Positions 18,044-63,342 of a stretch of DNA of 64,000 nucleotides are shown here, piece after piece. The DNA comes from a virus, in IMG/VR virus record IMGVR_UViG_3300044644_001556; one strand, 5' to 3'. Within the stretch, counting starts at the first letter, position 1, and every line of letters begins with the position of its first letter. The position numbers and the translations under genes are program-made. The notes below the pieces were generated by a model, which saw only the letters and a program-made list of their open reading frames with translations, was not told the DNA's origin and made no database searches.

Positions 18044-18478
18044 CTAGGTTATTCGTCTTATTGGTCGAACGTTATTATATTGCGATAGATATTGGTTTCG
18101 CTTATCGAATGTAACTACATCATATCGATTATTAGTTTTTGTAGAAGTCCAATAGGAGCCATGCATTTGAGCAATTATATTAGTGATAATATTTTCTGAA
18201 ATACTAATTAATTCATACATAGATGGTAAATACCAATCATTATATCCACCGTAAACTAATCGATTACAATAATCATTAGCTTCATCCCAAGACATATTAA
18301 CTTTATTAACTGAAAATGGAGCTACAATAATATCAGCATTTACATTATGTTCGTTTATTTGAACATTAGATATCATTAACCCACCATATTCAGCGATTAT
18401 ATGTTTAATCTTAGATGGAATAAACAACACTTCAGGGTTTGTATGATAATTATATAAATTTAATGGCGGATTTACCAT
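18044..18478 (-). CDS. DUF1566/Lcl-type CLec-like domain protein with N-terminal LNLYxY motif
   Basis: MSWDEANDYC...GGYNDWYLPS..EL...YWTS...VRPIR. Confidence 0.75.
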   Translation of the reverse strand: MVNPPLNLYNYHTNPEVLFIPSKIKHIIAEYGGLMISNVQINEHNVNADIIVAPFSVNKVNMSWDEANDYCNRLVYGGYNDWYLPSMYELISISENIITNIIAQMHGSYWTSTKTNNRYDVVTFDKRNQYLSQYNNVRPIRRIT

Positions 18479-18593
18479 TTAACAAAACCTCTATAATACA
18501 ATAAATTTATATTTATACTATAATCGATTGATTTTATTAATAAAATCCCGACATATTTTAAAAATATGTCGGGATATATTTTAAGTACGGTTA

Positions 18594-19073
18594 TTATGAT
18601 TCGACGTACGTAGATTTATCCGGAACTGAATAAAATAATAAATCATCGTTCGTCGCATTGGCGCCTACTATAGTCGCAACTTCTGGACCAATTTCATGTT
18701 TATACATGATTTTAATATTACCATTAAAATATTCGATAACCGCAGCTAAATGCTGATCTTTATTCTCTATATAATTATAATCCGGATTATACTGTAAAAC
18801 GTCACTTAATAAAAAAGCCGAGGCAGTTCCGGTATTTACGTGAAATTTACCGATTGGTTTAAATGGGTTCTTTTCATTTCCGGTTGGTTGAATAATAGTC
18901 CAGGACATATTAGGTTGGACGTTAAACATAGTTGCGTAGGTATCCAAACCTAGCAATTCCATTTTATTACCTCTCGCGCATTTATCCCAATCACCCGGAT
19001 TATTCGGATTTAAAATATACGATGGGTCGGTAATAATAATGGTACCATTAAAATATTGTGTTATATCGTGCAT
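18594..19073 (-). CDS. conserved phage hypothetical protein
   Basis: GTIIITDPSY motif; 159 aa. Confidence 0.55.
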   Translation of the reverse strand: MHDITQYFNGTIIITDPSYILNPNNPGDWDKCARGNKMELLGLDTYATMFNVQPNMSWTIIQPTGNEKNPFKPIGKFHVNTGTASAFLLSDVLQYNPDYNYIENKDQHLAAVIEYFNGNIKIMYKHEIGPEVATIVGANATNDDLLFYSVPDKSTYVES

Positions 19074-19085
19074 AATTTATTATCT

Positions 19086-19550
19086 CTATTCATTATAAAA
19101 TCGATTAATGCTATCTAACATATCATCTAAGCTATTATAAACTAATACACTTGGATTAATCAATCCTAACTGAGTAATTACATCTATTTTTCTTACGTAA
19201 TTTGGATGGCATGCTACAAATATTTTTTTATATGTTGGTTTAGCATGGACGCCTAATTCATATAATGTAATTGGGCATACGGTTTCTTCAGTAAAATAGA
19301 ATAAGATAGCATTAGCTTCAATTAAATGATTATATTCCCACATAATTTGATTAACTGTCATATTGATATCAGTTATATCAAAATCTGATCTACGGGGGTT
19401 TATGAGCTGAATATCTAAATTAGACAATCGTTGCACTGCATAATCTTGCCAGTCAGAACAATTAGATATACCGCCAGCTAAAAATATAGATGGCCTATCA
19501 TCTGCTTTATATATTTCAGGACATTTTACTTCATACATGAGGAGTACCAA
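19086..19550 (-). CDS. nucleoside 2-deoxyribosyltransferase-like protein
   Basis: SIFLAGGI...WQ...INPRR...QIMWE...CPITLYELG. Confidence 0.8.
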   Translation of the reverse strand: MVLLMYEVKCPEIYKADDRPSIFLAGGISNCSDWQDYAVQRLSNLDIQLINPRRSDFDITDINMTVNQIMWEYNHLIEANAILFYFTEETVCPITLYELGVHAKPTYKKIFVACHPNYVRKIDVITQLGLINPSVLVYNSLDDMLDSINRFYNE

Positions 19551-19830
19551 ATGGATTTAATGCATATTCTAATGCCGTATTTGCAGTCCCTGTTTTATCC
19601 GTTGCCGAGACTTCTCGAACTTTTGGATATTTAATATCAAATACTGGTATACTCTCCTTTATAGTACTAGATTCTGTTTCGGATTGATCTAATTTAATTT
19701 CCGATAATATTTGTTTACTTCGTTTCTCGTAATCAAGACTTTTTGCTTTCAATTCGTCACTTTGCTCTGCATACATTTTAGCTAAATATGCAAATTCTAA
19801 GGCAGACTCAATTTGATTTACTAATTTCAT
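19531..19830 (-). CDS. hypothetical protein
   Basis: 99 aa ORF within operon. Confidence 0.5.
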   Translation of the reverse strand: MKLVNQIESALEFAYLAKMYAEQSDELKAKSLDYEKRSKQILSEIKLDQSETESSTIKESIPVFDIKYPKVREVSATDKTGTANTALEYALNPFGTPHV

Positions 19831-19867
19831 ATTATTTCTCAGTTGATTAAAATTTAGTGGTTGTTTT

Positions 19868-21190
19868 TTAAATTCCAGTAATAGCTCTGGCTCGAATTAT
19901 ATCTAATGATTCATCTATTAATAATTTACCATTTTCATAATAAGTTACTAAATTAGCGTCGTCAAATCGACCACCTTTTGATTTTTTACCAGAATCAGTA
20001 ATTGGGTCTTTAACTGTATCGATCCACGCACCATTAATTTCCATTGCTGATGTTTTTTGGGCGAAGCTATACGTATCTCGATTAACTTTTTGTAATAAGC
20101 CGCCACCTGAACCGTAAACTAAAGTTTCAGCTGCAAAACCAAGGGTACTTATTCTAGCACTTAAACCTTCAATCGCATCAGAGTCAATTCCATCACCTTG
20201 AATTAAACTTATATTATTTAAAACATTATAACCTTTACTATTTGAAGTATGGCCAAAATGATAATCGATTACTCTAATTAATTTAGGAATAATATCGTAA
20301 GGATCTCCGCTATCCGGGCGGATAACTACATGCAAATTCTTTTCTAAAATTAAATTTTTAAAATGGATACATAATGCTTCCGTATCTCGGTAAATATCAT
20401 AACCATCTAAAACTATTGATATAACTTCTTCGTTTTTGCAGCTATTTAATATATTGCCGATATAATCAATCTGATTATGTTTACCGTAAGCGCATTGAAT
20501 ACTATGTTCTGTTGCTCGAATTGAATGCCCAGCCATTGGTTCATTATAATATTTTCTTGCAGCTCTTAACGCAACTAAATTATCAGTACCTCTAAAATAT
20601 AATAAATGAGCCAAACCACCAATTTCTGACGTTTCTTGAGAAGAGACGCCCCGAGCTCCAAAATCATGCAATGCATAATTTAAATTATGCATATTATCTG
20701 ATGATCGGCTATATTCTTTTTTTAATCTAGAATAGTTAATATAATCATTAGAAGCAATGGTAGTCGGATACCAGACACTACGCTGCCACATAGACTCGAT
20801 ATATGAAGGTAACCAATATAATTCCGGATCATTACTTTCGATTGAATATAATGGAGTTCTCGATTGAGTTATAGAACCTTCGGGTACGCACTTAATAGTA
20901 ATCGGTAATAAACCACCATATTCATTTAATATCTTTTCCCAACCACTTCTATTAAAAGGTAATCCGTGGGCTGCTAATAATTCTTCAGCTTCATCTATAT
21001 TATCCTGAGTGATAGGATTTAATAGATGTTTTTTAATACTCATTTGAAAACCAAATGGTATAATAGTTTTATTAGGTTTTCTTGCTTCACCATATGCATA
21101 TTGAGCTGTAGTTCCGCTCGGATACATATTAAAATGGCTAGGTTTATAACTATCTGCGTCTAAGATAATATTCTGTACTAATTGAGTCAT
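19868..21190 (-). CDS. nadV: nicotinamide phosphoribosyltransferase (NAMPT)
   Basis: DSYKPSH, LHDFGARG, ATEHS, IRPDSGD, IQGDG, GSGGGLLQKVNRDT, KDPITDSGKKSKGG. Confidence 0.93.
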   Translation of the reverse strand: MTQLVQNIILDADSYKPSHFNMYPSGTTAQYAYGEARKPNKTIIPFGFQMSIKKHLLNPITQDNIDEAEELLAAHGLPFNRSGWEKILNEYGGLLPITIKCVPEGSITQSRTPLYSIESNDPELYWLPSYIESMWQRSVWYPTTIASNDYINYSRLKKEYSRSSDNMHNLNYALHDFGARGVSSQETSEIGGLAHLLYFRGTDNLVALRAARKYYNEPMAGHSIRATEHSIQCAYGKHNQIDYIGNILNSCKNEEVISIVLDGYDIYRDTEALCIHFKNLILEKNLHVVIRPDSGDPYDIIPKLIRVIDYHFGHTSNSKGYNVLNNISLIQGDGIDSDAIEGLSARISTLGFAAETLVYGSGGGLLQKVNRDTYSFAQKTSAMEINGAWIDTVKDPITDSGKKSKGGRFDDANLVTYYENGKLLIDESLDIIRARAITGI

Positions 21191-21500
21191 CGTTTTTCTC
21201 CCGTTGTTTCATCTCTTGCACTACGTTTCTAACTGGTATTACATATGATTCGGATATGCTATTATATAAAGAAGATTCAATCCAATAACCAACATTCCCC
21301 ATTCCGTATCTAGTTAAAAAGCTATTGATTTCCGCTATTTCCATTGCCTTAGGTAATCGCCAATCAGTATAACCACCGTAATTTAAGAATTGACAATATA
21401 TTGCAGCTTCTTCTTGATTTTGTAATTTAATAAATGCGTCGGATGCAATATCTAAAAAATAGTCTTGATATAAAAGTTCTTTTATCAATATCGTATTCAT
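21150..21500 (-). CDS. mini DUF1566/Lcl-like protein
   Basis: EAAIYCQFLNYGGYTDWRLP...VIPVR. Confidence 0.7.
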   Translation of the reverse strand: MNTILIKELLYQDYFLDIASDAFIKLQNQEEAAIYCQFLNYGGYTDWRLPKAMEIAEINSFLTRYGMGNVGYWIESSLYNSISESYVIPVRNVVQEMKQREKNDDSISTEYYLRRR

Positions 21501-22462
21501 TTATATCGATCATTTAAATAAGCTGGTTTTAAAAATTCAGCAGTCATAGCCATAATTATATCTCTATGATCATGAAATAAATTTAAATTATTGATTGCAT
21601 ATGATATATCGAACCACTGAACTTCGCTTGCGTCGTCGGCAGCTTTAATTTTAGGTTCGTATATTTCAGGAACTAATACTTGAAATAAAAAGCAATTAGT
21701 TACCCGCATTAAACCACCAAATTTGCGTTTTGGTGAATCAAATATATTATTAAATATCGTATAATCAATCGATTCGCGCTGATCTTTTTCTTTTATTTGA
21801 ATTCCGGCTTCTTCGAATAATTCGCGTTTCGCACAATCAAAGAAAGTTTCATCGTGATTTTTAAATCCGCCAGGTAATGCCCAAGTATCTTTCCCTGGTG
21901 CAAATTTGCGTTTAATTAATAAAATTTTACCGTCATTATAAATTAAAGCATCTGCACAATTAAACTGTAAGGTTTCAGGAAATGGATAACTAGCAAATAA
22001 TTCTTTTTCTTTATTGAAGAAATTGTATTCTTCTTGGACGCTAGGATGCAATAATCCGCACTCTAATAAATTATTACGTATATCTGTCGCGGTAGTATCA
22101 ATATCAGTATAAACTTCTACATATCTATAAGTCGGGAACCATTTTAGGTAATGATTATCTGGTTTAGTATGACCGTAAATTCGAACGTCATTAAATTTGC
22201 ATAATATTTCATTTACTTCGACTTTCCATAAATCGTCGTCATATAGATAATCATTTAATGGGAAAATCGTTACATCGGGAAACTCTTTTAATATCATATC
22301 TCGACGTTCTTGATATGTATAAGGGTTGCGTAGATTTCTCGATTGATTAGCTGAGCCTAATAAAATTACATGATTATCAGTTTCTTCGATCATTTTACTA
22401 ATAACTGCAATATGGCCGGCATGCAATGGTTGGCATCTACCTATAAAAACACCAGTTTTCAT
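21497..22462 (-). CDS. nadM: bifunctional NMN adenylyltransferase / Nudix (ADP-ribose pyrophosphatase)
   Basis: GRCQPLHAGH (HxGH), RNPYT, ATDIR; Nudix box WALPGGF...RELFEEAG; AADDA. Confidence 0.9.
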   Translation of the reverse strand: MKTGVFIGRCQPLHAGHIAVISKMIEETDNHVILLGSANQSRNLRNPYTYQERRDMILKEFPDVTIFPLNDYLYDDDLWKVEVNEILCKFNDVRIYGHTKPDNHYLKWFPTYRYVEVYTDIDTTATDIRNNLLECGLLHPSVQEEYNFFNKEKELFASYPFPETLQFNCADALIYNDGKILLIKRKFAPGKDTWALPGGFKNHDETFFDCAKRELFEEAGIQIKEKDQRESIDYTIFNNIFDSPKRKFGGLMRVTNCFLFQVLVPEIYEPKIKAADDASEVQWFDISYAINNLNLFHDHRDIIMAMTAEFLKPAYLNDRYK

Positions 22463-22810
22463 TTAATTACCTTTAATTTTATTAAATTTTTTAACATCAT
22501 CTAAAATAGTATGCGCTAAATTTACGGCTGATTGTTCATTTAATATTAAATGCGCTTGTTCTTTATGATAACCGGTAGTTAAAACTTCCCAAATAATTTT
22601 AAAACGATTATATGAACTAGACCAAAAATTAGAAGTAGATTCAACGTAAAAACTAAGCGTTATATCTTTAAATTCAGTTTCAGTATCTAATTCAATCCAA
22701 GCATGAACTTGATGTTCTGGGGAGCTACAAGCACAATTGATTATATAATTAGTAGCATTATCAAAATCAGTTCCTCTTGAAATACCTTCTGCCGGTTTTT
22801 GAACTTCCAT
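22463..22810 (-). CDS. hypothetical protein (CxC..H motif)
   Basis: 115 aa, CACSSPEH. Confidence 0.55.
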   Translation of the reverse strand: MEVQKPAEGISRGTDFDNATNYIINCACSSPEHQVHAWIELDTETEFKDITLSFYVESTSNFWSSSYNRFKIIWEVLTTGYHKEQAHLILNEQSAVNLAHTILDDVKKFNKIKGN

Positions 22811-23256: not shown

Positions 23257-23279
23257 ATAGCCTCCAAAATAAATTAAAA

Positions 23280-23302
23280 GAGTGGGGTCTAACCCCACTC
23301 TA
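23280..23302 (-). terminator. intrinsic terminator
   Basis: AGAGTGGGG/CCCCACTCT hairpin. Confidence 0.65.
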
Positions 23303-23311
23303 TATTAAAAA

Positions 23312-24463: not shown

Positions 24464-24475
24464 GCTTTTTGTCCA

Positions 24476-27877: not shown

Positions 27878-28117
27878 TTAACCGATAGCAATCGTTTCAA
27901 TCATTAATTGATTTTTAAATGATCTGATATTTACAAAAATTTCACGATCGACTAAAACTCGTTCTAATAATTCGCATTCATATAAACCAGGATTAATATC
28001 ACTAAATCTTAATTTACGACCCTGATCAGATTTTCGGTTATCTGGTAATGCATGATCACCAAATAATTCAGTTACTAAGTTACGGATAATGGTTGTTGTG
28101 TTTTGGTTAGTAGTCAT
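27878..28117 (-). CDS. small protein, paralog family B
   Basis: TTIIRNLV...G...GRKLRF pattern shared with 29163, 30506, 36647, 50777. Confidence 0.55.
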   Translation of the reverse strand: MTTNQNTTTIIRNLVTELFGDHALPDNRKSDQGRKLRFSDINPGLYECELLERVLVDREIFVNIRSFKNQLMIETIAIG

Positions 28118-29162: not shown

Positions 29163-29399
29163 TTATTCGGAAAAATAATAAACCCGAATTTCTAAATTAC
29201 TACCGTTAATAATAGCACGCCCTCTAAACGGAGCAATTTTTTCATTAATTTCTTGTAATTGTTGATCAGTTACTTTAACATCTGAATAAATTAATAAACT
29301 ACCAGAACTAGTCCGTTCATTATTAAATTTTTTAAGTTGCTTCCCACCAACATAACTTACAATAGAACTAATTTCTTTAATTTGATCTTTACCGCTCAT
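29163..29399 (-). CDS. small protein, paralog family B
   Basis: ISSIV...GG...NNERTSSG.LLIY...VTDQQL.EI. Confidence 0.55.
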   Translation of the reverse strand: MSGKDQIKEISSIVSYVGGKQLKKFNNERTSSGSLLIYSDVKVTDQQLQEINEKIAPFRGRAIINGSNLEIRVYYFSE

Positions 29400-30505: not shown

Positions 30506-30784
30506 CTAGTTTGTGTATTCGATAATTTGATCATTCGCTCTAAATAAAACATGAATTGTTAATACTCGTTTATTGTATAATGAATTATACACTTTAATAT
30601 CACAATATTGTTTTACTAGACTATTTTTTAATTGGTTTACTTGATTATCGGTAATATCAATACCTTTATAAGTTAATCGTTTACCCAAAGAATCAACTTT
30701 TGTATTACATTTACTTTTACCGATAATAGATCTAACTATAGTATGAACGGTTGTCGTTCTAAGATCGCATTCTATTCTGCTCAT
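30506..30784 (-). CDS. small protein, paralog family B
   Basis: VHTIVRSIIG...GKRLTYKGIDITDNQVNQL. Confidence 0.55.
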   Translation of the reverse strand: MSRIECDLRTTTVHTIVRSIIGKSKCNTKVDSLGKRLTYKGIDITDNQVNQLKNSLVKQYCDIKVYNSLYNKRVLTIHVLFRANDQIIEYTN

Positions 30785-32972: not shown

Positions 32973-33224
32973 TCAATCTATATCTCTTACCGCCCTTACA
33001 TATCGAACATTTAAAAAATCCGTGGTATCATAATAATCATCTAAATCCCAATAGACTGAATCTCTAGATGTTCCGTATATTCCCCATTGAGCTCGTTCTA
33101 ATCTAGTCGGTAATCTCCAATTGCGTTTATCGTCTATTATTAAAAAATCGACGTACATTACTGCCTCAGCAAAGGTATTGCATTTATGTATCGTATCCTC
33201 TGGTGCTAATTCAATTTTACTCAT
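32973..33224 (-). CDS. mini DUF1566/Lcl-like protein
   Basis: IELAP...TFAEAVMYV.FL...NWRLPT...VRAVRDI. Confidence 0.7.
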   Translation of the reverse strand: MSKIELAPEDTIHKCNTFAEAVMYVDFLIIDDKRNWRLPTRLERAQWGIYGTSRDSVYWDLDDYYDTTDFLNVRYVRAVRDID

Positions 33225-33570
33225 TATTAATGCGGATAGGCCTAACCGCTATTATATTCGAATTTTTATATAAACTACACGGCGAAGAAGCAAAAGCGGG
33301 AATAGTCATAGCCGAAGTATTAGAATATTCAAAATCAGTCCAATAATGCGATTCTCGTAATTCGTAATTACCATATTGTTTTATATCATAAAATTTACGC
33401 AATATAAATTCTAATTCTCCTCTATTCGGTAATCGCCAATCATTATAACCATCAATATTTAAAAATTGGCAATATAATATAGCCTCATACCAAGTCATTA
33501 GTTTTTCATATTGTTTTTCAGCAATAATTATATCATAGCCAACATTTAAACCACCAAAATATGATTTCAT
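33217..33570 (-). CDS. DUF1566/Lcl-like protein
   Basis: MTWYEAILYCQFLNIDGYNDWRLPN..EL...YWT...VRPIR. Confidence 0.8.
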   Translation of the reverse strand: MKSYFGGLNVGYDIIIAEKQYEKLMTWYEAILYCQFLNIDGYNDWRLPNRGELEFILRKFYDIKQYGNYELRESHYWTDFEYSNTSAMTIPAFASSPCSLYKNSNIIAVRPIRINNE

Positions 33571-34241: not shown

Positions 34242-34532
34242 TTAAACTCCGTAATCTCGAACTGCTCTTACCCACCCGCCGCCAAGCTGCTGCCGTTGGC
34301 AATAAAAATATAAGGTACGATCCACGACTGAATATTGATACATTAAATCGCGTTCGTGAACTGTAGGTAGTCGCCAATTATTATTACCATTTATTGTTAA
34401 AAATTGACAATATAATTTAGCTTGGTCCCAGCCATCCATTAATTCATTATCACAATTAATTCTAATTTCCGAAGAGATATGGCATATCTCTATTGCACGT
34501 TTATTGATGTTTAAAATAGTTTTTTGCATCAT
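34242..34532 (-). CDS. mini DUF1566/Lcl-like protein
   Basis: WDQAKLYCQFL..NGNNNWRLPT...VRAVRD. Confidence 0.7.
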   Translation of the reverse strand: MMQKTILNINKRAIEICHISSEIRINCDNELMDGWDQAKLYCQFLTINGNNNWRLPTVHERDLMYQYSVVDRTLYFYCQRQQLGGGWVRAVRDYGV

Positions 34533-36430: not shown

Positions 36431-36431
36431 A

Positions 36432-36646: not shown

Positions 36647-36946
36647 TTATTCAACCGTTTCGTAAATTCGGATTTGTAAAATTTGGTCGTATTTTTTATT
36701 GCTTCTTAGTTTAACTTTACTTTGATATGGGGCAATAATTTTAGCAATTTGATTAACCTGATCTTCGGAAATATTAACACCTCGATATTCTAATCGATGA
36801 CCATTATCTCTAGGATCTTTATATATTCGTTTAAATGAACCGATAACTGGTTCAGTTAAATCTCGAACTAACCAAACCCGATTTAGTTGAGTTAAATTTT
36901 CATTCATATTTGCATTATGAACCATAAATCCTCCGATATTAATCAT
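36647..36946 (-). CDS. small protein, paralog family B
   Basis: VRDL..PVIG...KDPRDNGHRLEYRGVNISEDQVNQI. Confidence 0.55.
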   Translation of the reverse strand: MINIGGFMVHNANMNENLTQLNRVWLVRDLTEPVIGSFKRIYKDPRDNGHRLEYRGVNISEDQVNQIAKIIAPYQSKVKLRSNKKYDQILQIRIYETVE

Positions 36947-43356: not shown

Positions 43357-44028
43357 ACTATCATACATCTCCACTAGTGGGACTTGAACCCACGCCCGAT
43401 ATTGTCCGGTAGCCGGCATGTTCATGCATCCGAACATCGTAAGGTCTACTCCTCCCATGGCTCTAACCAACTGAGCTATAGTGGAGATGTATGATAGTGC
43501 TTGTCTTTCCAAGCCGTCATGAAGGTCTCCGTTACTATCAATAATTGCCACCGCAAGGAATCGAACCTAGATTTACCGGTTTGTTAGCAAGTTGCCTTAC
43601 ACCATTTAGACGACAATAGCAATTATTGATAGTGCTTGTCTTTCCAAGCGGTCACCACACATTAAATATTAATAAAACGCTGATGGGATTCGCACCCATA
43701 TTTCAAACCGCGCTGGGTAAGTGTACTTCAAGTCTTATACGACAGCGTTTTATTTCTAATCTGAAAGTTGTCTTAAGTAGACGGTTCAGCTCCCCTACAG
43801 CCGTTGGTTACCGAGTCGGTGGTCGGTTGATAATTATAATATAACTATCAATAAAATGCACGTTACTTCTTCCGAAATATAATATCTTAAGCTACTATAC
43901 TCGGCTTTACTGAGCTTTCCCCACTTGCGTGCTTTATACTCGAATCTGTACGCGCGTAACATATCGAATAAGGCCTCTACTATCTTTCGATGCATTTTAT
44001 TGATGGTGCTTGTCTTTCCAAACTGTCA
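43357..44028 (-). ncRNA. three-unit structured RNA array with tRNA-like cargo
   Basis: TGACnG(C/T)TTGGAAAGACAAGC three times, each followed by a 15-20 bp clamp stem. Confidence 0.75.
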
Positions 44029-45167: not shown

Positions 45168-48005
45168 TTAGACACCAGGTGTTGTACTAGCACTAACTAA
45201 ACTATCTAAACTAGTACCCACTGAGTTAGTAGCAGTTACTGTAAATGTATACGCAGTTCCGTTAGTTAATCCGGTTACTGTAATTGGCGATGCAATTCCA
45301 GTAGCTGTTATATTATCAGGATTTGATGTTACGGTATAACTAGTAATTGCACTACCACCATCGTTAGCTGGCGGAGTAAATTCTACCGTTACTTCAGCAT
45401 CGCCATTAATAGTAGTAATTATACTTGGAGCATCGGCGATAGTCACCGGAGTTACTCCACCACTTGGTAAACTTGCAGCACTAACACCAACTGAGTTAGT
45501 AGCGGTTACTGTAAATGTATACGCAGTTCCGTTAGTTAATCCGGTTACTGTAATTGGTGACGCAGTTCCAGTAGCTGTTATATTACCAGGATTTGATGTT
45601 ATGGTATAACCAGTAATTGCACTACCACCATTGTTAGTTGGTGGCGTAAATTCTACCGTAGCTTGGGCATTACCGACAACAATATTACCTACAGTTGGGG
45701 CGTCAGCGATAGTTGCTGGTGCTATCGGGGCGATACTAGAGCTAGCTGTGCTTGCAGCACTAACACCAACTGAGTTAGTAGCGGTTACTGTAAATGTATA
45801 TGCAGTTCCGTTAGTTAATCCAGTTACCGTAATTGGCGATACAGTTCCAGTAGCTGTTATATTGCCGGGATTTGATGTTACTGTATAACCGGTAATTGTA
45901 CTACCACCATTGTTAGTTGGTGGAGTAAATTCAACTGTTACTTCGGTATTACCAGCAACTACATTACCAATGGTCGGTGCAGCAGCTACCGTAATTGGAA
46001 CAATTGGAGTAATACTAGAGCTAGCGGCACTAGCAGTACTGATACCAATTGCGTTAGTCGCAGTTACTGTAAATGTATATGCTGTTCCGTTAGTTAAACC
46101 AGTTACTATAATAGGAGACGAAGTTCCTACTGCTGTTATATTGCCGGGATTTGATGTTACCGTATAACTAGTAATTGCACTACCGCCATTGTTAGTTGGC
46201 GGTGTAAATTCTACGGTTACTTCGGCATTACCGACAGTCGCAGTTCCAATAGTTGGTGCACCAGCTACAGTAATTGGTATCACTGGGGTTATACTATTAC
46301 TTGCTGCACTTGCAGCACTAACACCAACTGAGTTAGTAGCGGTTACTGTAAATGTATATGCAGTTCCGTTAGTTAATCCAGTTACGGTAATTGGTGATGC
46401 AGTTCCGGTAGCTGTTATGTTACCCGGATTTGATGTTACGGTATAACCAGTAATTGCACTGCCGCCATCATTAACTGGAGGTATAAATTCAACAGTAGCT
46501 TGAGTATTACCGACAGTCGCAGTTCCAATAGTTGGTGCATCAGCTACAGTAATTGGTATCACTGGGGTTATACTATTACTTACTGCACTTGAGTTACTAG
46601 TACCAGCTAAATTAACAGCAGCAATTGTAAATGTATACGCCGTTCCTGTTGTTAAACCAGTCACCGTAATAGGTGAAGTTAAGCCAGAAGCTGTTATATT
46701 ACCGGGATTTGAAGTCGCTACGTAACTAGTAATTGTACTTCCGCCGTCATTAACTGGCGGATTAAATCCAACTGTTGCTGAGGTAGGAGTAGCCATAACC
46801 GCCGTTCCGATAATTGGTGCATCGGCGATAGTAATCGGCGTTACTGAATTACTTGGGATACTAGATGGACTAGATCCGGCTGCATTAACAGCAGAAACAG
46901 TAAATGTATAAACTGTTCCGTATGTTAACCCAGAAATCATAGTCGGCGATGAACTATCAGTTATCGTTATATTGCCTGGGTTTGATGTTACGATATAATT
47001 TGCTATAGCACTGCCGCCTGTATTTGCGGGTACGGTATAAGTTATAGTTGCTGTGTTATTATTTAACGCCACGTTCGTTATCGATGGTGCAGTCGGTATA
47101 GTAATTGGCGTAATACTAGCACTAGCAGTACTTACTGAACTTACGCCGACTGAGTTAGTTGCGGTTATAGTAAACGTATATGGAGTCCCGTTAGTTAAAC
47201 CAGAAACCACTATAGGTGATGCAGTTCCAGTAGCCATTATATTTCCTGGATTTGAGGTTACCGTATATTGAGTTATTACGGCTCCGCCATTATCCATTGG
47301 GGGTGTAAATTCTATGGATGCTTGAGCATTACCTCCGGTGACTGTATTAATACTTGGTGCGCCCGGTATAGTATTTGGTCGGAATGGAGTTATACTATTG
47401 CTCGGTAAACTAGCTGGGCTGTTGCCGCCAGCATTGATAGCAGAAACAGTAAAAGTATACGGTATTCCGTTAGTTAAACCAGTTATTACAATAGGAGACT
47501 CAGTACCTGTTGCCGTTATATTACCAGGTATTGATTTTACTAAAAATCCAGTAATTGGATTTCCTCCGTCGTAATATGGTTCCGCGAACGAAACTGTAGC
47601 TCTCGCATCGCCAACGACCGCTACGACTGAAGTTGGAGCATCAGATACGGCCGGTAATTTTATACCGATTGCGTATTCTACGGTAATTGGATCAGTCGAA
47701 TCAGTTGATATACTAATAGTTGTTTCGGCACCGTCGTAAGCGAATAATTTAGTAGTAACAGGTATCGATTGACTAGTCGTTACGTCAATCAAATCACTAC
47801 TTAGTATAACGCCGGCTCCGAGATTACCTAATACCATAGGACTATCAACATTAGTTAAATCTACAGAACCGATGGTATAACTACCGAACGGTAACTGCAT
47901 ATTACTAGCGATAATTCTATTCGTAGTTATACGACCATAGGCATTCTCGGTTTTAAGATCTGAGTTAAAATCAACTGCCAACGTAGTTGGGTTTCTTATC
48001 GCCAT
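45168..48005 (-). CDS. fibronectin type III repeat virion-surface protein (9 FN3 domains)
   Basis: Nine ~93-aa repeats AP...PxxNGGSAITGYTVTSNPG...GLTNGTAYTFTVTATNSVG; ATAAATAT at 48031-48038. Confidence 0.9.
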   Translation of the reverse strand: MAIRNPTTLAVDFNSDLKTENAYGRITTNRIIASNMQLPFGSYTIGSVDLTNVDSPMVLGNLGAGVILSSDLIDVTTSQSIPVTTKLFAYDGAETTISISTDSTDPITVEYAIGIKLPAVSDAPTSVVAVVGDARATVSFAEPYYDGGNPITGFLVKSIPGNITATGTESPIVITGLTNGIPYTFTVSAINAGGNSPASLPSNSITPFRPNTIPGAPSINTVTGGNAQASIEFTPPMDNGGAVITQYTVTSNPGNIMATGTASPIVVSGLTNGTPYTFTITATNSVGVSSVSTASASITPITIPTAPSITNVALNNNTATITYTVPANTGGSAIANYIVTSNPGNITITDSSSPTMISGLTYGTVYTFTVSAVNAAGSSPSSIPSNSVTPITIADAPIIGTAVMATPTSATVGFNPPVNDGGSTITSYVATSNPGNITASGLTSPITVTGLTTGTAYTFTIAAVNLAGTSNSSAVSNSITPVIPITVADAPTIGTATVGNTQATVEFIPPVNDGGSAITGYTVTSNPGNITATGTASPITVTGLTNGTAYTFTVTATNSVGVSAASAASNSITPVIPITVAGAPTIGTATVGNAEVTVEFTPPTNNGGSAITSYTVTSNPGNITAVGTSSPIIVTGLTNGTAYTFTVTATNAIGISTASAASSSITPIVPITVAAAPTIGNVVAGNTEVTVEFTPPTNNGGSTITGYTVTSNPGNITATGTVSPITVTGLTNGTAYTFTVTATNSVGVSAASTASSSIAPIAPATIADAPTVGNIVVGNAQATVEFTPPTNNGGSAITGYTITSNPGNITATGTASPITVTGLTNGTAYTFTVTATNSVGVSAASLPSGGVTPVTIADAPSIITTINGDAEVTVEFTPPANDGGSAITSYTVTSNPDNITATGIASPITVTGLTNGTAYTFTVTATNSVGTSLDSLVSASTTPGV

Positions 48006-50776: not shown

Positions 50777-51025
50777 TTAAAATGATATAATTAACGAAGT
50801 AATTGTTTCTTCATTTTCTTTAGTGTCGACTAATTTAACATTGGCATTAAAGCCGCTTAAATCGGCTGTAAGCTGGTTAATACTATCTTCATCAAATGAT
50901 ATTGATAGATTATAAAACTTTAATCTACGGCCGGTTTTGCGCTTATCATTAACCATTTTCTGGTATGATCTACCGATAGCGGCCTCAACGATAGATCTTA
51001 CATGAGTAGTTGGGTTTGCTTCCAT
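50777..51025 (-). CDS. small protein, paralog family B
   Basis: THVRSIV..AIG...NDKRKTGRRLKFY...SINQL. Confidence 0.55.
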   Translation of the reverse strand: MEANPTTHVRSIVEAAIGRSYQKMVNDKRKTGRRLKFYNLSISFDEDSINQLTADLSGFNANVKLVDTKENEETITSLIISF

Positions 51026-57613: not shown

Positions 57614-57749
57614 ATAATTTACCTTTTATTAAATAAGTTAGTTAATACAACAATATTAATTATACAGCATTTACCGATAAATGACTAACAATAAATCCAA
57701 AACATCTTCATCGTTAGTCTAATATAATCATAAGATGAGATTATTAACA

Positions 57750-58256
57750 TTAATTATAGCAAATTTTATTAACTAAGTTATTTACGGTAGATAAACCATT
57801 TTTACCAGTTATCTCAAATACTAATTTTTGATTTGTTAGATAAATTAAAAGTATATTAATATTAGAAGTATTTTCGTAAATATTAATTGCGCTAATATTA
57901 GCTAACGGAATAATATATAGTCCGCCACTAGTAGAAAGAACTAATGGTGTTTTGCATCCACCAGGTTGAATATTTTTTATATTATCTGTTTTAATAATTT
58001 CATTATCGGAATGGTCCGAATCATCTTTCGTTGTAGTAGTGGTTACTGATGCTACTATTTGTGGATCAGTTTTAATAATTTCATTATCCGAATGACCCGA
58101 ATCGTCTTCCGTTGTAGTAGTGGTTGTAGTTACTGATGCTACTATTTGTGGATCAGTTTTATGTCGGGCATTATTTTGGGCGATCGTTCCCGCAACGACT
58201 GTAATCCCGAAAATAATTATCGATACTAGACATACTTTTGCTATATCATCAATCAT
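57750..58256 (-). CDS. membrane protein with internal Thr-rich duplication
   Basis: N-terminal TM; KTDPQIVASVTTTTT..DDS.HSDNEII twice. Confidence 0.6.
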   Translation of the reverse strand: MIDDIAKVCLVSIIIFGITVVAGTIAQNNARHKTDPQIVASVTTTTTTTEDDSGHSDNEIIKTDPQIVASVTTTTTKDDSDHSDNEIIKTDNIKNIQPGGCKTPLVLSTSGGLYIIPLANISAINIYENTSNINILLIYLTNQKLVFEITGKNGLSTVNNLVNKICYN

Positions 58257-58674
58257 TTACTAATTCCTTATTCGTTTTATCTTTAATTAATATTACGTTA
58301 TTTTTACTACTTTTACCAAAAAAATCTATTAATCCAGTTTCGAAATCATAAACCCAAGCTAATGGACTATGATGTTCAACACTAGACCAATATCTCTTAT
58401 TGTATAAATCACCGACCGCATTATATATTTGACCTAATTCATCAATATCTGGTAATCGCCATCCATCTAAATTAGCTTGCTGGATTTCATGCCAAGTTAA
58501 TGGAATATCGTAACCTAGTGATACTTCAAATGGTAAACCTAATAACTTACCTGAGGCGGCTTTTTGCTTTAATGCGATTATTCGATCAAAAAATTCATCA
58601 CTTAACGGCTTTGCTTGTTCTACTAATAACTGATTATCTAATAACGTCAAAATAGCAGCTTCAAAATCATTCAT
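58249..58674 (-). CDS. DUF1566/Lcl-like protein
   Basis: LTWHE...GWRLP.IDEL...YWSS...AW.YDF..G. Confidence 0.75.
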   Translation of the reverse strand: MNDFEAAILTLLDNQLLVEQAKPLSDEFFDRIIALKQKAASGKLLGLPFEVSLGYDIPLTWHEIQQANLDGWRLPDIDELGQIYNAVGDLYNKRYWSSVEHHSPLAWVYDFETGLIDFFGKSSKNNVILIKDKTNKELVND

Positions 58675-58861
58675 AATAATACTCGATTACTTATATTCGC
58701 CAATTTCGGATTCGTAGGTTAAATCGCAGCAATTACAAACATGCCATTCAACATTTTTTGGCGCATCAGGCCAATAATGAAACATTTTACATCCACACTG
58801 ACATGTAAATACATTTCCTTTTATTTTAATAAAATGAGAATCAATTACAGTATCCATATTA

Positions 58862-59308
58862 TCATTTAAACCAATTTAATATATTATCGATGAATGACGG
58901 TAACGGTTTAGGTTTACTGATAGGTATATCCCATGTTATAGTCAGCCCATCTACGATTTTGGAAACCGCTATTAAAAATGAATTTGGCTCGACGATATAA
59001 CCGGCATTAATAAAATCATTAGTTAATTGAAGTTCGAACCAAGTTATTTCAAACGGATTAACTTCTTTTAAATGTTCGTAACACCACGGCATTAATAATT
59101 GAGTATCTCTAATGTAATATGTTTTCGGCGTAAAACAAATATGAACCGACATATGACCGTCGGCACCCAAGTTTTCCATCGTGGTTAATAATCGTGATAC
59201 GATTCTACTATAATCGGGTAATAAATTACGGTTCTTCGCCTCAATCGATATTTTTTTTAATTCTTGAGCTGCCGTTATTTTCGGAATTGAAACCATAATA
59301 CCTCTCAT
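58862..59308 (-). CDS. hypothetical protein
   Basis: 148 aa ORF. Confidence 0.5.
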   Translation of the reverse strand: MRGIMVSIPKITAAQELKKISIEAKNRNLLPDYSRIVSRLLTTMENLGADGHMSVHICFTPKTYYIRDTQLLMPWCYEHLKEVNPFEITWFELQLTNDFINAGYIVEPNSFLIAVSKIVDGLTITWDIPISKPKPLPSFIDNILNWFK

Positions 59309-59368
59309 TTATAAAATAATTAAAAATAATATTATAATACAATCATAATATTAAATCAATACAAAAAA

Positions 59369-59626
59369 TTAATTATATCGTATTGGAACAATAACGAACG
59401 TGCGACCAGTCTTTAAAATCATTTCTATTAATAATGGATTATCATCGCGAAACATCATATCTGTAATATTTAAATCTACTGGTAGTATATGACGCATAGC
59501 TAAAATATTATCGAAAGTGGGTAATATCCAATCTTGATGTCCATTATATTCCAAAAATTGACAATATAATTCAGCTTGGTAATACCCCATGGTTTGATTT
59601 GTTAAGGGTGGGGCATATTCTATCAT
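59369..59626 (-). CDS. mini DUF1566/Lcl-like protein
   Basis: MIEYAP...LYCQFLEYNGHQDWILPT...IVPIR. Confidence 0.7.
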   Translation of the reverse strand: MIEYAPPLTNQTMGYYQAELYCQFLEYNGHQDWILPTFDNILAMRHILPVDLNITDMMFRDDNPLLIEMILKTGRTFVIVPIRYN

Positions 59627-59914
59627 AAATTAAAACTACGGAAGTGACTCATTCTTTTATAAATCGTATTTTTGTTAATTTAGTAACAAATGTAGTCGGT
59701 CTTAATTTAGTAATGCATATAGTTTCTAATTTATCATCAACTGTTATATGACTAATATCGTATTCTCTACCTTTATAATTTGCTATACATCTATAGCCAG
59801 ATGAAATGCGATATGCTTCTTTTTGATATGAATTATATTCATTATTAAAATTATCGACGTCAGTCGAATAAATTTTTTGTTCTTTTATTAAATCTGAAAT
59901 ATTCATTGTTTATT

Positions 59915-60124
59915 TTAGTTATCAATTGACCTTACTGGAGTAACGGTAAATTTACCGCGAGTCTGATCATCTAAATACCAACCATAAATTCCGTGAGTAT
60001 TATGATATTCTTCTTTAGTAGGTAATCGCCAATTATTAAACCCGTCATGATTACAAAAAGTACAATACAATAACGCATCATCATAAGTCATCTCTTTTTC
60101 CGTTCTCGGAGCTTGTATAAACAT
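59915..60124 (-). CDS. mini DUF1566/Lcl-like protein
   Basis: MTYDDALLYC.F..HDGFNNWRLPT...VTPVR. Confidence 0.72.
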   Translation of the reverse strand: MFIQAPRTEKEMTYDDALLYCTFCNHDGFNNWRLPTKEEYHNTHGIYGWYLDDQTRGKFTVTPVRSIDN

Positions 60125-60443
60125 AATTTACCATATAAATTTAGCTCCGCATATTAAGGCGGAGCTAATAACATTAAGCTGCGTCTAATAGTTGTATTTG
60201 AATATCGTTTTTTGCTTCCGCTATATGAGTATCTACGTAATGATCAGCGATTCTCATAATTTGAAATGTATTGATATCGCCTTCTACTTCACCTTCAGTC
60301 ATTTTTTCGTAGATAGCGTCTAATAACCAATCACCTAACATTAAATCGTTATCTTTAACTGTTATTGTAGTTACTACTTTATATGTCTTTGCCATGTTTT
60401 TCCTTTACTATTAATTAATCTCAAGTTATTTATATTCGAGTAA

Positions 60444-60677
60444 TTATTGATCGATGCTTATATTTTTATTGCGGACTGGATAAACAACTAACGATAGACC
60501 TTTTCGATTATATAGACTTTGGCTTTGATTATGCCAACCATGAATTTGAGTATATTCTATCCATTCGGTCCATGTCGGCATTCGCCAATCAGCATATCCA
60601 TTATAATTTAAAAATTGACAATATAATATCGCATCTTCTAATAAAACTAAACCTGATCTAGGAGCTATTTCTATCAT
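60444..60677 (-). CDS. mini DUF1566/Lcl-like protein
   Basis: MIEIAP...DAILYCQFLNYNGYADWRMPT...VYPVR. Confidence 0.72.
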   Translation of the reverse strand: MIEIAPRSGLVLLEDAILYCQFLNYNGYADWRMPTWTEWIEYTQIHGWHNQSQSLYNRKGLSLVVYPVRNKNISIDQ

Positions 60678-60898
60678 GCAGTTCTAATTGGCGTTACTAT
60701 CCGCACAAATCTAACATTAATACTACCCTCGTACCAAATATTAATCATTGATCCTCTACTCTTACTGTTAATATAATAATATTCTTCTTTAGTAGGCATT
60801 CGCCAATCATTATATCCATTATAATTTAAAAATTGACAATATAATAATGCATCAGCATATACCATTTTATTTTTTGGGGATGGGGCTATTTCTATCAT
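60674..60898 (-). CDS. mini DUF1566/Lcl-like protein
   Basis: Start MIEIAPS in an ATGA overlap; DALLYCQFLNYNGYNDWRMPT...VTPIR. Confidence 0.72.
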   Translation of the reverse strand: MIEIAPSPKNKMVYADALLYCQFLNYNGYNDWRMPTKEEYYYINSKSRGSMINIWYEGSINVRFVRIVTPIRTA

Positions 60899-61101
60899 AT
60901 ATCTCGCACCGGAACTATAGCCCAATCCCCATCATCAAATTGAATAATCATCTGACACCAACTTATAATATGATAATCATCACATTCTTTTTTAGTCGGC
61001 ATTCGCCAATCATTATGGCCCCGGTATTCTAAAAATTGGCAATATAATATAGCGTTATTATATGTCATTAATTCCGATAATTCTTCCGCTATCTCGATCA
61101 T
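60895..61101 (-). CDS. mini DUF1566/Lcl-like protein
   Basis: MIEIAE...AILYCQFLEYRGHNDWRMPT...IVPVRDI. Confidence 0.72.
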   Translation of the reverse strand: MIEIAEELSELMTYNNAILYCQFLEYRGHNDWRMPTKKECDDYHIISWCQMIIQFDDGDWAIVPVRDI

Positions 61102-61313
61102 ATATCACGAACTGGATTTACCGGAGCTAATAACCCAGGTCGAAACTTCATATCAACCTGCCACCAATGATCATACCCGAGACCATATTCTTTACATTCA
61201 GCAAATGTCGGTAATCGCCAATCAGTATAACCATTATAATTTAAAAATTGGCAATATAATATTGCATCATCATACGATAATAGTTTTTTACATTTTGGCG
61301 CTATTTCTATCAT
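61098..61313 (-). CDS. mini DUF1566/Lcl-like protein
   Basis: MIEIAPK...DAILYCQFLNYNGYTDWRLPT...VNPVRDI. Confidence 0.72.
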   Translation of the reverse strand: MIEIAPKCKKLLSYDDAILYCQFLNYNGYTDWRLPTFAECKEYGLGYDHWWQVDMKFRPGLLAPVNPVRDI

Positions 61314-61476
61314 TATTTCCAATTGTTACAAAAAATACCTTGATGTAATCTTACAATTCCGTATAAGATATATTTGTAAATTGTCGCCCATAATGGTAAT
61401 TTGTTATTAGTGAAACATAACATTTCGAAATGTTCATATATTGTTTGCATATTTAATTTTCCTTGATATAAATGTA

Positions 61477-61725
61477 TTAATGATACTTGATAACACAATT
61501 ACCACTAACTTCGACCATACTGTTCGATTCTTTATCTATAAAATAATAACCGTCGGATTCATGGCTATTCATAATCTTACCAGTACTATCACCATCGTAA
61601 ATTACAGTATCACCCGAATAACATTTGACATGCCCTGATTCACCTAATGATTTAAATTTACCGATATTCGCATCAGTACATGCACTTACCATCAATGTAA
61701 AAATTATAATTAAACTTTGTTTCAT
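61477..61725 (-). CDS. small lipoprotein
   Basis: Lipobox MVSAC; CYSG...GY.F...VSG.C. Confidence 0.65.
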   Translation of the reverse strand: MKQSLIIIFTLMVSACTDANIGKFKSLGESGHVKCYSGDTVIYDGDSTGKIMNSHESDGYYFIDKESNSMVEVSGNCVIKYH

Positions 61726-61734
61726 TTTATTTTC

Positions 61735-61956
61735 CTATTTTATATCTCGAACTGGTGTTATATGTAATTTAAAATCTTTACCGGAATAATGATCTGCATC
61801 GTATAACCACCCCCATACTTCAATCGTATTTTGATGCCAATCAAACATATTCGGCATCCGCCAATCGGTATACCCATCATACTCTAAAAATCGACAATAT
61901 AATAACGCTTCATCATAAGTCATTTTTTTATCAGCAATCGGAGCTATTTGAATCAT
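61735..61956 (-). CDS. mini DUF1566/Lcl-like protein
   Basis: MIQIAP...MTYDEALLYCRFLEYDGYTDWRMP...ITPVRDI. Confidence 0.72.
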   Translation of the reverse strand: MIQIAPIADKKMTYDEALLYCRFLEYDGYTDWRMPNMFDWHQNTIEVWGWLYDADHYSGKDFKLHITPVRDIK

Positions 61957-62301
61957 TATTCATTCACTGAATAAACAAAATCATTAATATTAAATTGGTC
62001 GGTGTAATACCGCAACTCAATATCTCGATCTAAATACAATAACATCCCATCACCGTTTAATGGATCAATCTCTAAATCTAATGATTTAACTTCGCATATA
62101 TTCATACCAGTAATAAATTTTACGGAGCAATTATCATTAACGATTAAATAATTACCAGAACCACTAGCAATACCTTTTTCTTTTAACTCAATTAAAAAAT
62201 CATGATACGTCATTTTTATTAACCTCTAAAAAATAAACTACACATACAAATACAAATGATTGTATTATACAAAATATATCTACTATTTTTTCTGGTTCCA
62301 T

Positions 62302-62520
62302 TTAAATATCCCTTACTGGTACAACATACCAACCATCCGAGTCGTCTTTTAATGCATCATCCAAATACCAAACATCAGATTGATATAAATCAGCATCATC
62401 ATATTCTGGTTTCGTTAATAACCGCCAATCGTTATAACCACCGTAAGTACAAAATGCACAATATAAAACTGCATCATCATACGACATTCGATTGTCTGAT
62501 TTAATTCCCCATTCTAACAT
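62302..62520 (-). CDS. mini DUF1566/Lcl-like protein
   Basis: MSYDDAVLYC.FC.YGGYNDWRL...VVPVRDI. Confidence 0.7.
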   Translation of the reverse strand: MLEWGIKSDNRMSYDDAVLYCAFCTYGGYNDWRLLTKPEYDDADLYQSDVWYLDDALKDDSDGWYVVPVRDI

Positions 62521-62829
62521 GCAATCTCTCGCTGTAATTCTTGTTCTAATATTTCAACTTGATTATCAGTTAAATTCAACTTGTATAATAAGATATTTAA
62601 ATTACCGATACTCCGGCCAAATGCGTTAGCATAATAAACATAATTAGCTGCTCCTTCATTTTCTTTTTGAGTCGCTAATCTATGACAATCATCAGAATGT
62701 CTATTAACGTACGCATTAATTTTATGATATTTTGTTAATACTGTAGTTTCGTTAAATATATCTAATTGTTCCATTTTATAGTCTCTTATTAAATTAGTTA
62801 ATTAATACAACTAATATATTATAATACAG

Positions 62830-63342
62830 CTAATCAATATTATCAATATTTTTATTTGTAACGATAATACACGGCAACCTATCTGAGGGGGCGACCGGTA
62901 TTTCGTAATATGAATGATAACTATGCCTACCCATTAGCGCCTCATGCCAAATTATACTAGAACGTTTCGCATCAATTAACGGAATTGAACCGACATAATA
63001 TTTTTCTGGTATATCAGCTTTAGTATTACTAATCCAGATAAATCGACCCCGAGGTATATCAGTTCGATTATTATATAAGTTCGTTATTGCGTATATTTCA
63101 TCATTATTAGGTAATCGCCAATCAATATTAAAACAAAGCAATAATTTTACTTCATCATGGGTTAATAAATTATCAATTACCTTATACTCAAGTTTATCAT
63201 CAATTGCTAATAAATCATCTATAACTCGTTGTTGAATTGATAATAGCCGGCGTTTATCGTACCAAAACCATAAACTTACAGATAACCATATGATTGCAGT
63301 AAGACCGACTGCAAAAAGACCATGCATAATATTTACCCACAT
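62830..63342 (-). CDS. membrane-anchored divergent DUF1566/Lcl-like protein
   Basis: N-terminal TM helix, then LTHDE...DWRLPN.DEI...IWIS. Confidence 0.55.
   Translation of the reverse strand: MWVNIMHGLFAVGLTAIIWLSVSLWFWYDKRRLLSIQQRVIDDLLAIDDKLEYKVIDNLLTHDEVKLLLCFNIDWRLPNNDEIYAITNLYNNRTDIPRGRFIWISNTKADIPEKYYVGSIPLIDAKRSSIIWHEALMGRHSYHSYYEIPVAPSDRLPCIIVTNKNIDNID

Follow-up and report, generated by a model that had tools for sequence, protein, structure and literature searches.

A 62-gene family of long and miniature Lcl_C/DUF1566 lectin-fold proteins encoded by a phage found in freshwater metagenomes

Introduction

Small domains of the DUF1566 type, which adopt the C-type-lectin fold, are known from bacterial adhesins and from retroelement-diversified proteins. 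The adhesin Lcl of Legionella pneumophila is a secreted, trimeric, collagen-stalked protein with a basic glycosaminoglycan-binding surface. In its C-terminal domain (Lcl-CTD), the conserved DUF1566 residues lie mostly in the core, with a salt bridge between Arg338 and Glu344 (PMC11162425). DUF1566-type domains are also a recognised target class (CLec2, 'category d') of diversity-generating retroelements (DGRs; PMC5758913). Among DGR variable proteins, LdtA is a surface lipoprotein and Mtd forms a fibre tip; export signals are missing from the phage family that we describe here, part of which lies in a 64,000-nucleotide stretch of viral DNA (IMG/VR record IMGVR_UViG_3300044644_001556), referred to below, at its full length, as the window.

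A preliminary description, made from the letters of the window alone, listed 23 paralogous minus-strand genes for this fold with divergent C-terminal halves, and proposed that they form a repertoire of small binding proteins. We confirm the observation, and the interpretation finds partial support, in that the structure and the mode of evolution hold. What is new is the miniaturised stand-alone form of a known fold, Lcl_C/DUF1566, together with its very large phage-encoded expansion.

Results

The family comprises 23 genes in the window and 62 in total

All 23 open reading frames (ORFs) are present in the window ORF list, on the minus strand and with the coordinates first reported. A family hidden Markov model (HMM) built from them and run against the six-frame translation of the window matched exactly 23 ORFs, at 39.7–92.9 bits, with the next ORF at 8 bits; the scores themselves are circular, the members being the training set, while the gap to the next ORF is not. 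Independently of this model, Pfam Lcl_C (PF07603, formerly DUF1566) matches 18 of the 23 at E ≤ 0.01. The count of 23 minus-strand paralogs is thus borne out by both the ORF check and the family HMM. The genes are listed here with lengths in amino acids (aa), family HMM scores and, where given, the ratio of nonsynonymous to synonymous substitution rates (dN/dS) against the orthologue in a related phage; the long and mini forms are defined in the next section.

18044–18478, minus strand: long-form Lcl_C paralog, 144 aa, N-terminal extension of about 55 aa; family HMM 79.8 bits; Pfam Lcl_C E 3.3e-11, 44 bits, profile positions 19–117 of 117
21150–21500, minus strand: long form, 116 aa, between the NMNAT/Nudix gene and the NAMPT gene and overlapping both; 79.9 bits
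28787–29083, minus strand: long form, 98 aa, in the long-form clade of the tree; 81.3 bits
29860–30210, minus strand: long form, 116 aa, directly downstream (in the sense of transcription) of a GroES-like gene; 78.3 bits
30814–31038, minus strand: mini form, 74 aa; 67.0 bits; Pfam Lcl_C 15.4 bits, E 0.024
32973–33224, minus strand: short paralog, 83 aa; 70.8 bits; alone without a Pfam match; sister of the 30814 gene in the tree (support 100/99)
33217–33570, minus strand: long form, 117 aa, modelled as the full-length reference; Pfam Lcl_C 43.3 bits, profile positions 19–117
34242–34532, minus strand: paralog, 96 aa; 74.3 bits
34999–35409, minus strand: long form, 136 aa, with a variable segment of 72 residues; 73.6 bits
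36158–36430, minus strand: paralog, 90 aa; 73.8 bits
37130–37417, minus strand: paralog, 95 aa from the listed TTG, an internal ATG being likelier; 78.4 bits
49220–49552, minus strand: long form, 110 aa; 79.1 bits
55244–55537, minus strand: divergent paralog, 97 aa, WQVPN for WRLPT; 55.5 bits; dN/dS 0.14
58249–58674, minus strand: long form, 141 aa, N-terminal extension; 39.7 bits; dN/dS 0.11; partial match to NCBIfam adhesin_Lcl, E 4.9e-7
59369–59626, minus strand: paralog, 85 aa, first gene of the dense array; 68.3 bits; dN/dS 0.18
59915–60124, minus strand: mini form, 69 aa; 80.1 bits; Pfam 24.8 bits, positions 18–54 only; dN/dS 0.13
60444–60677, minus strand: mini form, 77 aa; 81.1 bits; dN/dS 0.24
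60674–60925, minus strand: mini form, likely start ATG at 60898 (74 aa), which overlaps the upstream gene's stop by 4 nt; 87.4 bits; dN/dS 0.23; ATG-start ORF 97% identical in the relative
60895–61101, minus strand: mini form, 68 aa, smallest in the window; 81.7 bits; dN/dS 0.13
61098–61322, minus strand: mini form, the modelled member, likely start ATG at 61313 (71 aa); dN/dS 0.06; 71-aa orthologue 97% identical
61735–61956, minus strand: mini form, 73 aa; 78.9 bits; dN/dS 0.35
62302–62520, minus strand: mini form, 72 aa, WRLLT variant; 73.3 bits; dN/dS 0.13
62830–63342, minus strand: paralog, 170 aa, one N-terminal hydrophobic helix followed by DKRR; 42.4 bits; dN/dS 0.25

The real family is far bigger than the 23 genes first described. 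For the DNA past the window end we used a metagenome contig of 99.8 kb that matches the window over 10.7 kb with 100% identity, and positions beyond 64,000 are extrapolated window coordinates. The same HMM found 39 further ORFs there, at 64,015–78,715, and no member at 1–18 kb or at 78.7–93.5 kb, which gives 62 genes with 63 domains between 18.0 and 78.7 kb, amounting to 17.7 kb of coding sequence. Within this range, a dense array at 59.4–78.7 kb holds 48 genes in 19.3 kb. Families of 62 paralogs are, to our knowledge, very unusual in phage genomes.

Many members had been described as only 68–85 aa long, and 10 of the 23 are indeed no longer than 85 aa, with the qualification that the three ORFs listed from TTG (37130, 60674 and 61098) probably begin at an internal ATG; in two of them this ATG falls at the conserved MIEIAP start, giving 60674–60898 and 61098–61313. 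The motif WR[LM]P[TSNKD]xxE was found in 51 of the 62 members. Judged by sequence, the paralogs are old, with a median identity of 35% and a maximum of 61%; their 5' halves are 65–88% identical in blastn matches. The family tree sets a clade of 20 long domains (support 95/91) apart from the rest, which are mostly minis; 37 of its 60 forks are unresolved, and only this long/mini split is used here.

Long and mini forms have the C-type-lectin fold in common

The long form, with about 20 domains, has a core of roughly 95–100 residues that carries three extra β-strands between helix 2 and the last strand. The mini form, with about 40 members of 66–80 aa, consists of strand 1, helix 1, the WRLPT motif, helix 2, a conserved Trp and the last strand, the sheet between helix 2 and the last strand being replaced by a loop of about 20 residues around the conserved Trp. 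The long forms at 18044–18478 and 33217–33570 exceed the Pfam Lcl_C gathering score of 34.9 bits, at 44 and 43.3 bits. Minis taken singly fall below it: seven of the eight short members scanned scored 15.4–24.8 bits and matched only profile positions of about 19–54, and the gene at 60674–60925 (83 aa as listed from TTG) reached 30.3 bits. A profile-profile alignment of mini and long forms nevertheless spans the full length, with 99.8% probability and E 4e-28, which makes the minis truncated derivatives, not standard members, of the family.

Structural models agree with this assignment. An AlphaFold2 model of the long form at 33217–33570 (predicted local distance difference test score, pLDDT, 90.3) had the Legionella Lcl-CTD (8q4e) as its best Foldseek match, with E 3.3e-6 and a template modelling (TM) score of 0.65, followed by C-type-lectin-like domains of snake venoms and natural killer cell receptors. 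The model of the mini at 61098–61322 (pLDDT 91.7, predicted TM score 0.78) contains strand 1, helix 1, helix 2, the loop and the last strand. In a structural search with this mini, made without Foldseek over 48,161 chains, the best 50 matches were all C-type-lectin-like domains at Z 4.4–6.9, among them Bd2740 (Z 6.9), Lcl-CTD (Z 6.7, 73 residues aligned), MPXV A35 (Z 6.5, 62 residues aligned at a root-mean-square deviation of 2.2) and TvpA (Z 6.5); against A33 the TM score normalised by the query was 0.59–0.66. Such Z values count only because all matches have one fold and the sequence profiles agree with them. The proposed DUF1566/Lcl C-type-lectin fold is thus upheld by Pfam, by the models and by the fold searches. 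The long/mini split in the tree fits an origin of the minis by one or a few loop deletions, with expansion afterwards.

Fold-forming residues are constant and two short segments vary

Family alignments show nearly invariant Y, F, W, R, P and E residues, as well as the last R and a second W. The segment from WRLPT to the last strand contains a Glu that hardly varies (WRLPTxxE) and an aromatic position that is conserved, (G)W(Y), and the WRxPxxxE spacing, with Glu six residues after Arg, is that of Arg338 and Glu344 in Lcl. Variation between paralogs is concentrated in about seven residues after helix 2 and in the 10–14 residues before VxPVR. The earlier statement that the intervening segment differs completely is therefore right for two short parts and somewhat overstated for the whole, since the Glu and the aromatic are kept inside it. 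Residues that form the fold are common to all copies, and two short exposed segments vary among paralogs.

Two further features of family members were observed. The sequence YCxFC, which places a CxxC at the end of helix 1, occurs in 21 of the 62 members (for example 59915–60124 and 62302–62520), six of which have an extra Cys adjoining or just after the final PVR strand; these cysteines could be a metal site or a redox pair. One member past the window end joins a larger N-terminal domain to the lectin fold:

L004:10273–11391 (extrapolated window 72455–73573): 372-aa member, N-terminal domain of about 270 residues plus a long-form lectin domain

No Pfam or PHROG family matched this N-terminal domain. 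The fused gene is kept in the related phage, and the domain might hint at a partner function.

Both halves of the genes are under purifying selection

Because the paralogs are too diverged for dN/dS, selection was assessed on orthologues from a comparison phage, a syntenic ENA contig of about 93% nucleotide identity. Over 26 family orthologue pairs the pooled dN/dS was 0.156, against 0.124 for 20 neighbouring genes, and the values for the constant N-terminal half and the variable half were 0.141 and 0.174. These low ratios in both halves indicate that the genes are coding and conserved, not neutral, pseudogenic or hypermutated. Pseudogenes, or variable regions that drift neutrally, would have spoken against the preliminary description, and neither was found, purifying selection acting on both halves. 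Orthologues keep these variable segments, which makes every copy a gene of its own under selection.

Copy number has changed between these phages: the region common to both has 50 family ORFs here and 38 in the relative, with 29 orthologues shared at ≥80% identity, and whole units have been gained or lost at junctions. Most likely this occurred through recombination between the similar 5' halves.

Gene layout suggests coupled translation

In 22 of 61 neighbouring pairs of the dense array the genes overlap by exactly 4 nt, as ATGA stop/start, and 20 junctions read GT(G/A)AG(G/A)GA..ATG(A/T) within the PVRD codons. The codons for PVRD(V/I), with Arg as AGG or AGA, thereby form the ribosome-binding site of the next gene. 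This arrangement is direct evidence, at the level of sequence, for a layout suited to coupled translation of the units from one common transcript. A 218-nt contig from an RNA library is identical to 60939–61154, a weak hint at transcription of the 60895 gene, and one metatranscriptome, searched as assembled contigs only, contains a few short contigs, four of which are identical to the window.

A hydropathy scan found a hydrophobic N-terminal segment in one of the 62 members, at 62830–63342 (the only value above 1.6 in a 19-residue window), and this hydrophobicity scan fits the earlier remark that signal peptides are absent. The protein at 62830–63342 is probably membrane-anchored with its domain in the cytoplasm, given the DKRR after the helix and the positive-inside rule. 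The median isoelectric point is 5.1, and 45 of the 62 members are acidic. A cytoplasmic location is predicted for the family.

No active diversity-generating retroelement was found in about 103 kb

No reverse transcriptase was found by family matches among window ORFs of ≥200 aa, as the preliminary description had held, and no ORF of the size of a reverse transcriptase and no recorded reverse transcriptase domain was found from the window out to about 103.5 kb. A relaxed blastn search with five DGR-like segments found no template-like repeat in about 94 kb (window position 1 to about 93.5 kb) and returned paralogous coding segments only. The five query segments are the YWSST...AW...VRAVR ends of five domains in four genes that lie outside the window:

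L004:5131–5838 (extrapolated 78008–78715): 235 aa, two domains
L004:7406–7693 (extrapolated 76153–76440): 95 aa
L004:14404–14745 (extrapolated 69101–69442): 113 aa
L004:14742–15032 (extrapolated 68814–69104): 96 aa

In these segments GC content is 51% and the share of NNC codons 31%, compared with 31% and 8.5% in the rest of the same genes. Their loci are 99.98–100% identical across samples, a comparison of assemblies, which hide rare variants, and the segment of the 113-aa gene has one residue changed in the relative despite a synonymous divergence (dS) of about 0.2. They look like fossil or imported DGR-type variable regions. The minis, nine window genes among them, have an ordinary composition: 35.8% GC and 8.3% NNC in the C-terminal half, 35.6% and 8.0% in the N-terminal half, and 33.5% and 10.9% in the background. 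For the window long forms, whole-gene GC is 29–35%.

The suggestion of duplication rather than a DGR accordingly stands, with old paralogs, both halves under purifying selection, no reverse transcriptase or template found in about 103 kb, and ordinary mini composition; of the added suggestion that a DGR acts as well, a weak echo is left in the static footprint of those five domains. For the 23 window genes, a DGR origin of their variation is largely refuted.

The mini form is restricted to this phage lineage among the sequences searched

Small proteins with the same domain occur in other phages. The ESM Atlas has five clusters of 97–124 aa with Lcl_C as the main or only Pfam family, four of them 90–100% viral and one 76%, and an unrelated phage contig carries 14 long-form members in 17 kb. 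Against INPHARED phages, megablast with 21.5 kb and tblastn with one mini and one long member gave no match, and neither did a protein-pattern scan and an exact 43-mer search of a viral contig collection. HMMER against 1.84 billion representatives gave 18,170 matches; among the 150 listed nearly all are giant multi-domain proteins with 3–18 matching stretches, so that the spread of the mini form is not shown by this search. Word-indexed searches returned 3 and 40 small relatives only; one of the minis of the window is also encoded on a recorded 144.8-kb contig. By these comparisons, the mini form (66–80 aa) and the 62-gene scale appear specific to this phage lineage among the sequences searched.

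Features of an Lcl-type adhesin were not seen in the family, which has no collagen repeats and no export signal, and matches to NCBIfam adhesin_Lcl are partial, C-terminal and far under its cut-off. In the literature we found no published description of such arrays, and they are absent from the amoC-phage preprint (10.64898/2026.06.18.733297) and from the pmoC-phage paper.

Genome context

DNA of this phage occurs in freshwater and lake metagenomes released in 2016–2024. The window is AT-rich, with 30–35% GC over most of its length, and contains 13 tRNA genes. It encodes a bacterial-type amoC as well as NAMPT, NMNAT/Nudix, RNA ligase, a DEAD-type helicase and an HD-domain protein; GroES-like and parvulin-like genes were identified by eye. 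The family genes lie among non-structural genes and tRNAs. Freshwater amoC-phages have been placed in three groups with 36.1–39.3% GC and 1–6 tRNAs (preprint 10.64898/2026.06.18.733297), and the GC content and tRNA number of the window suggest that this phage may belong to another group of amoC-phages. NAD+ reconstitution by NARP2 is a known phage counter-defence (PMC13464706). Other features of the window are as follows.

19868–22462, minus strand: NAMPT and an NMNAT/Nudix fusion, a NARP2-type NAD+ reconstitution pair
27878–28117, 29163–29399, 30506–30784, 36647–36946 and 50777–51025, all minus strand: second paralog family, five proteins of 78–99 aa
39469–40227, minus strand: bacterial-type amoC; NCBIfam AmoC_BACT equivalog, 393.8 bits against a cut-off of 319
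43545–43621, minus strand: tRNA-like gene with undetermined amino acid and a four-base anticodon (aaca), by ARAGORN, at the end of the tRNA cluster
45168–48005, minus strand: 945-aa protein with about ten tandem repeats of about 90 residues, FN3-like by eye
57750–58256, minus strand: 168-aa protein, hydrophobic helix at the N-terminus, direct repeat of about 90 nt inside the gene (87.6% self-match)

The second paralog family is interspersed with the lectin-fold genes and has invariant Gly residues, a G.RL motif and 15–25% identity to its first member. Nowhere in the window is GC content higher than in the stretch of the 945-aa repeat protein (38.5%), which has matches among PHROG families of minor tail proteins, and the repeat at 57750–58256 encodes TTTT..DDS.HSDNEIIKTD. 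Three ORFs of 863, 2122 and 1492 aa at 2.7–16.5 kb, on the strand opposite to the family, adjoin its first member and matched no family. The relative has a 335-aa glycosyltransferase gene (PF13439/PF00534; L008:14253–15260) between a lytic transglycosylase gene and a 226-aa gene, and the present phage is without it at the corresponding place.

Discussion

We regard it as reasonably probable that this family is a germline-encoded repertoire of binders, composed of leaderless, mostly acidic Lcl_C/DUF1566 proteins of a large AT-rich freshwater amoC phage. The proteins would stay in the cytoplasm, where each may bind its own ligand through the loop surface, by analogy with other C-type-lectin-fold proteins, and the repertoire would then do by gene number what a DGR does by mutagenesis. 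Their most likely use would be against variable components of the host or of rival phages during infection, in host takeover or counter-defence; the non-structural neighbours, and the one member inside the NARP2-type pair, lend this weak support by association. A narrower version, which we hold only tentatively and think rather doubtful, has dozens of minimal modules of fixed specificity co-expressed in the infected cell against variable host or competitor molecules such as defence proteins and other strain-variable targets; the array would in that case be a hard-wired counterpart of a DGR, growing and shrinking by unit recombination as hosts change. The preliminary description had called the repertoire antibody-like; that goes too far, since the copies do not vary somatically and each of them is fixed and conserved.

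Several points weigh against a repertoire of cytoplasmic binders. Its function is read from the fold and the conservation pattern alone, and dN/dS comes from one phage pair. The binding site of Mtd, TvpA and Lcl sits on a sheet that the mini does not have, and the mini therefore may not bind as they do; its fold scores are middling (Z below 8, Foldseek E above 0.1). Expression is barely supported, as the RNA-library contigs could be contaminating DNA, and promoter-like sites at 54–64 kb are not above shuffled sequence (64 against 70 expected), a scan that is uninformative, although its two 11-of-12 matches both lie on the minus strand. The predicted cytoplasmic location comes from a hydropathy scan.

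Other explanations account for parts of these data. If a DGR elsewhere in the genome wrote the variable C-terminal segments, or had done so recently, the use of a known target domain (PMC5758913) and the five GC-rich and NNC-rich footprint domains just outside the window would be explained, and our searches did not reach the genome before the window or beyond about 103.5 kb; set against the missing reverse transcriptase and template repeat, segments that are static across samples and nearly unchanged in the relative, mini variable halves that have the composition of the constant half and background at a dN/dS of 0.17, and a footprint that occurs in none of the 23 window genes (the long forms judged by whole-gene GC), we consider this very unlikely. 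Even less credence goes to a silent cassette library, in which minis would donate segments by gene conversion into one expressed lectin-fold gene. Head-to-tail units with similar 5' halves, gained and lost whole between relatives, would suit such a library, and longer multi-domain members could serve as expression sites; all units, however, are intact ORFs that begin at start codons of their own, the ATGA overlap and a ribosome-binding site occur in many of them, purifying selection acts on both halves, paralogs at ≤61% identity show no sign of recent conversion, and no Pfam invertase or recombinase match was found among the larger ORFs of the window.

Two further possibilities concern what the proteins do. 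In T2-type phages, gp38 docks on the tail-fibre tip. Minis could likewise be detachable receptor-binding adhesins or virion decorations that dock on a fibre tip and provide many host specificities. C-type-lectin-fold domains do form receptor-binding tips, as in Mtd (PMC5758913) and in the predator fibre Bd2740, the latter being the best structural match of the mini; the three large ORFs adjoining the first member could be fibres, and one member outside the window has a 270-aa N-terminal domain. Yet those large ORFs are on the other strand, the family genes have tRNAs and non-structural genes as neighbours, members are without an anchoring or trimerising N-terminal part, the residues they have in common are fold core positions (PMC11162425) with no obvious docking surface, and sixty-two competing tips would dilute one another, all of which makes a role on the virion improbable in our view. 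It is also unlikely, if less sharply so, that these are small cytoplasmic proteins with some other shared role, structural, chaperone-like or oligomerising, whose differences are not related to targets. The mini does lack the usual binding sheet, a role of DUF1566 in trimer formation has been suggested (PMC11162425), and none of the phage members has a known ligand; one function is nonetheless hard to square with sixty-two different copies that each keep their own variable segment (dN/dS 0.17), and the differences between paralogs sit in two exposed segments around a fixed core.

Whatever its use, the phage gives about 17.7 kb to a single small domain, and every tested copy is maintained by selection. 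Should the proteins prove to be binders, phages would have a second way to diversify a lectin-fold repertoire, with many genes in the place of mutagenesis by a retroelement. Ammonia-oxidising bacteria are difficult to study, and the family would supply dozens of candidates for inhibitors or sensors of functions in these hosts; protein engineering might also profit from the mini as a natural scaffold of about 70 residues that is free of disulfides and has one variable loop surface. Because it turns over between phages with 93% identity, the array serves as a marker of an ongoing arms race, trackable in long lake time series.

Among known systems, the family is like Lcl-CTD in its Pfam family, in its WRxPxxxE spacing, in the top structural match of the long form and in a fold that needs no disulfides. 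It is unlike Lcl in that the phage proteins are single-domain and mostly acidic, without stalk or signal, about 40 of them also being without profile positions of about 55–110. With the DGR variable proteins (CLec2 or 'category d', DUF1566/DUF823/Fib_succ_major, with Legionella LdtA as prototype, and Mtd and TvpA) it has in common the fold and a fixed scaffold that displays a variable C-terminal surface (PMC5758913), although no reverse transcriptase, template repeat, adenine-specific variation or between-strain variation was found, and the diversity lies between old paralogs.

The poxvirus proteins A33 and A35 and the Link modules of TSG-6 and aggrecan G1 resemble the mini in being naturally compact versions of the fold, of about 80–100 residues, with no long loop region, and they rank with its best structural matches. 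They differ from it in that identity is 7–15% with no detectable sequence kinship, and the mini is smaller; they are extracellular proteins of eukaryotes or eukaryotic viruses, mostly with disulfides, whereas the mini arose within the DUF1566 family. Closest in setting are the ESM Atlas clusters together with PHROGs phrog_16004 and phrog_4245, which are small phage proteins with the same domain and no assigned function; the Atlas clusters belong to the long form, and in phrog_4245, whose profile has 583 positions, the match is confined to the C-terminal end.

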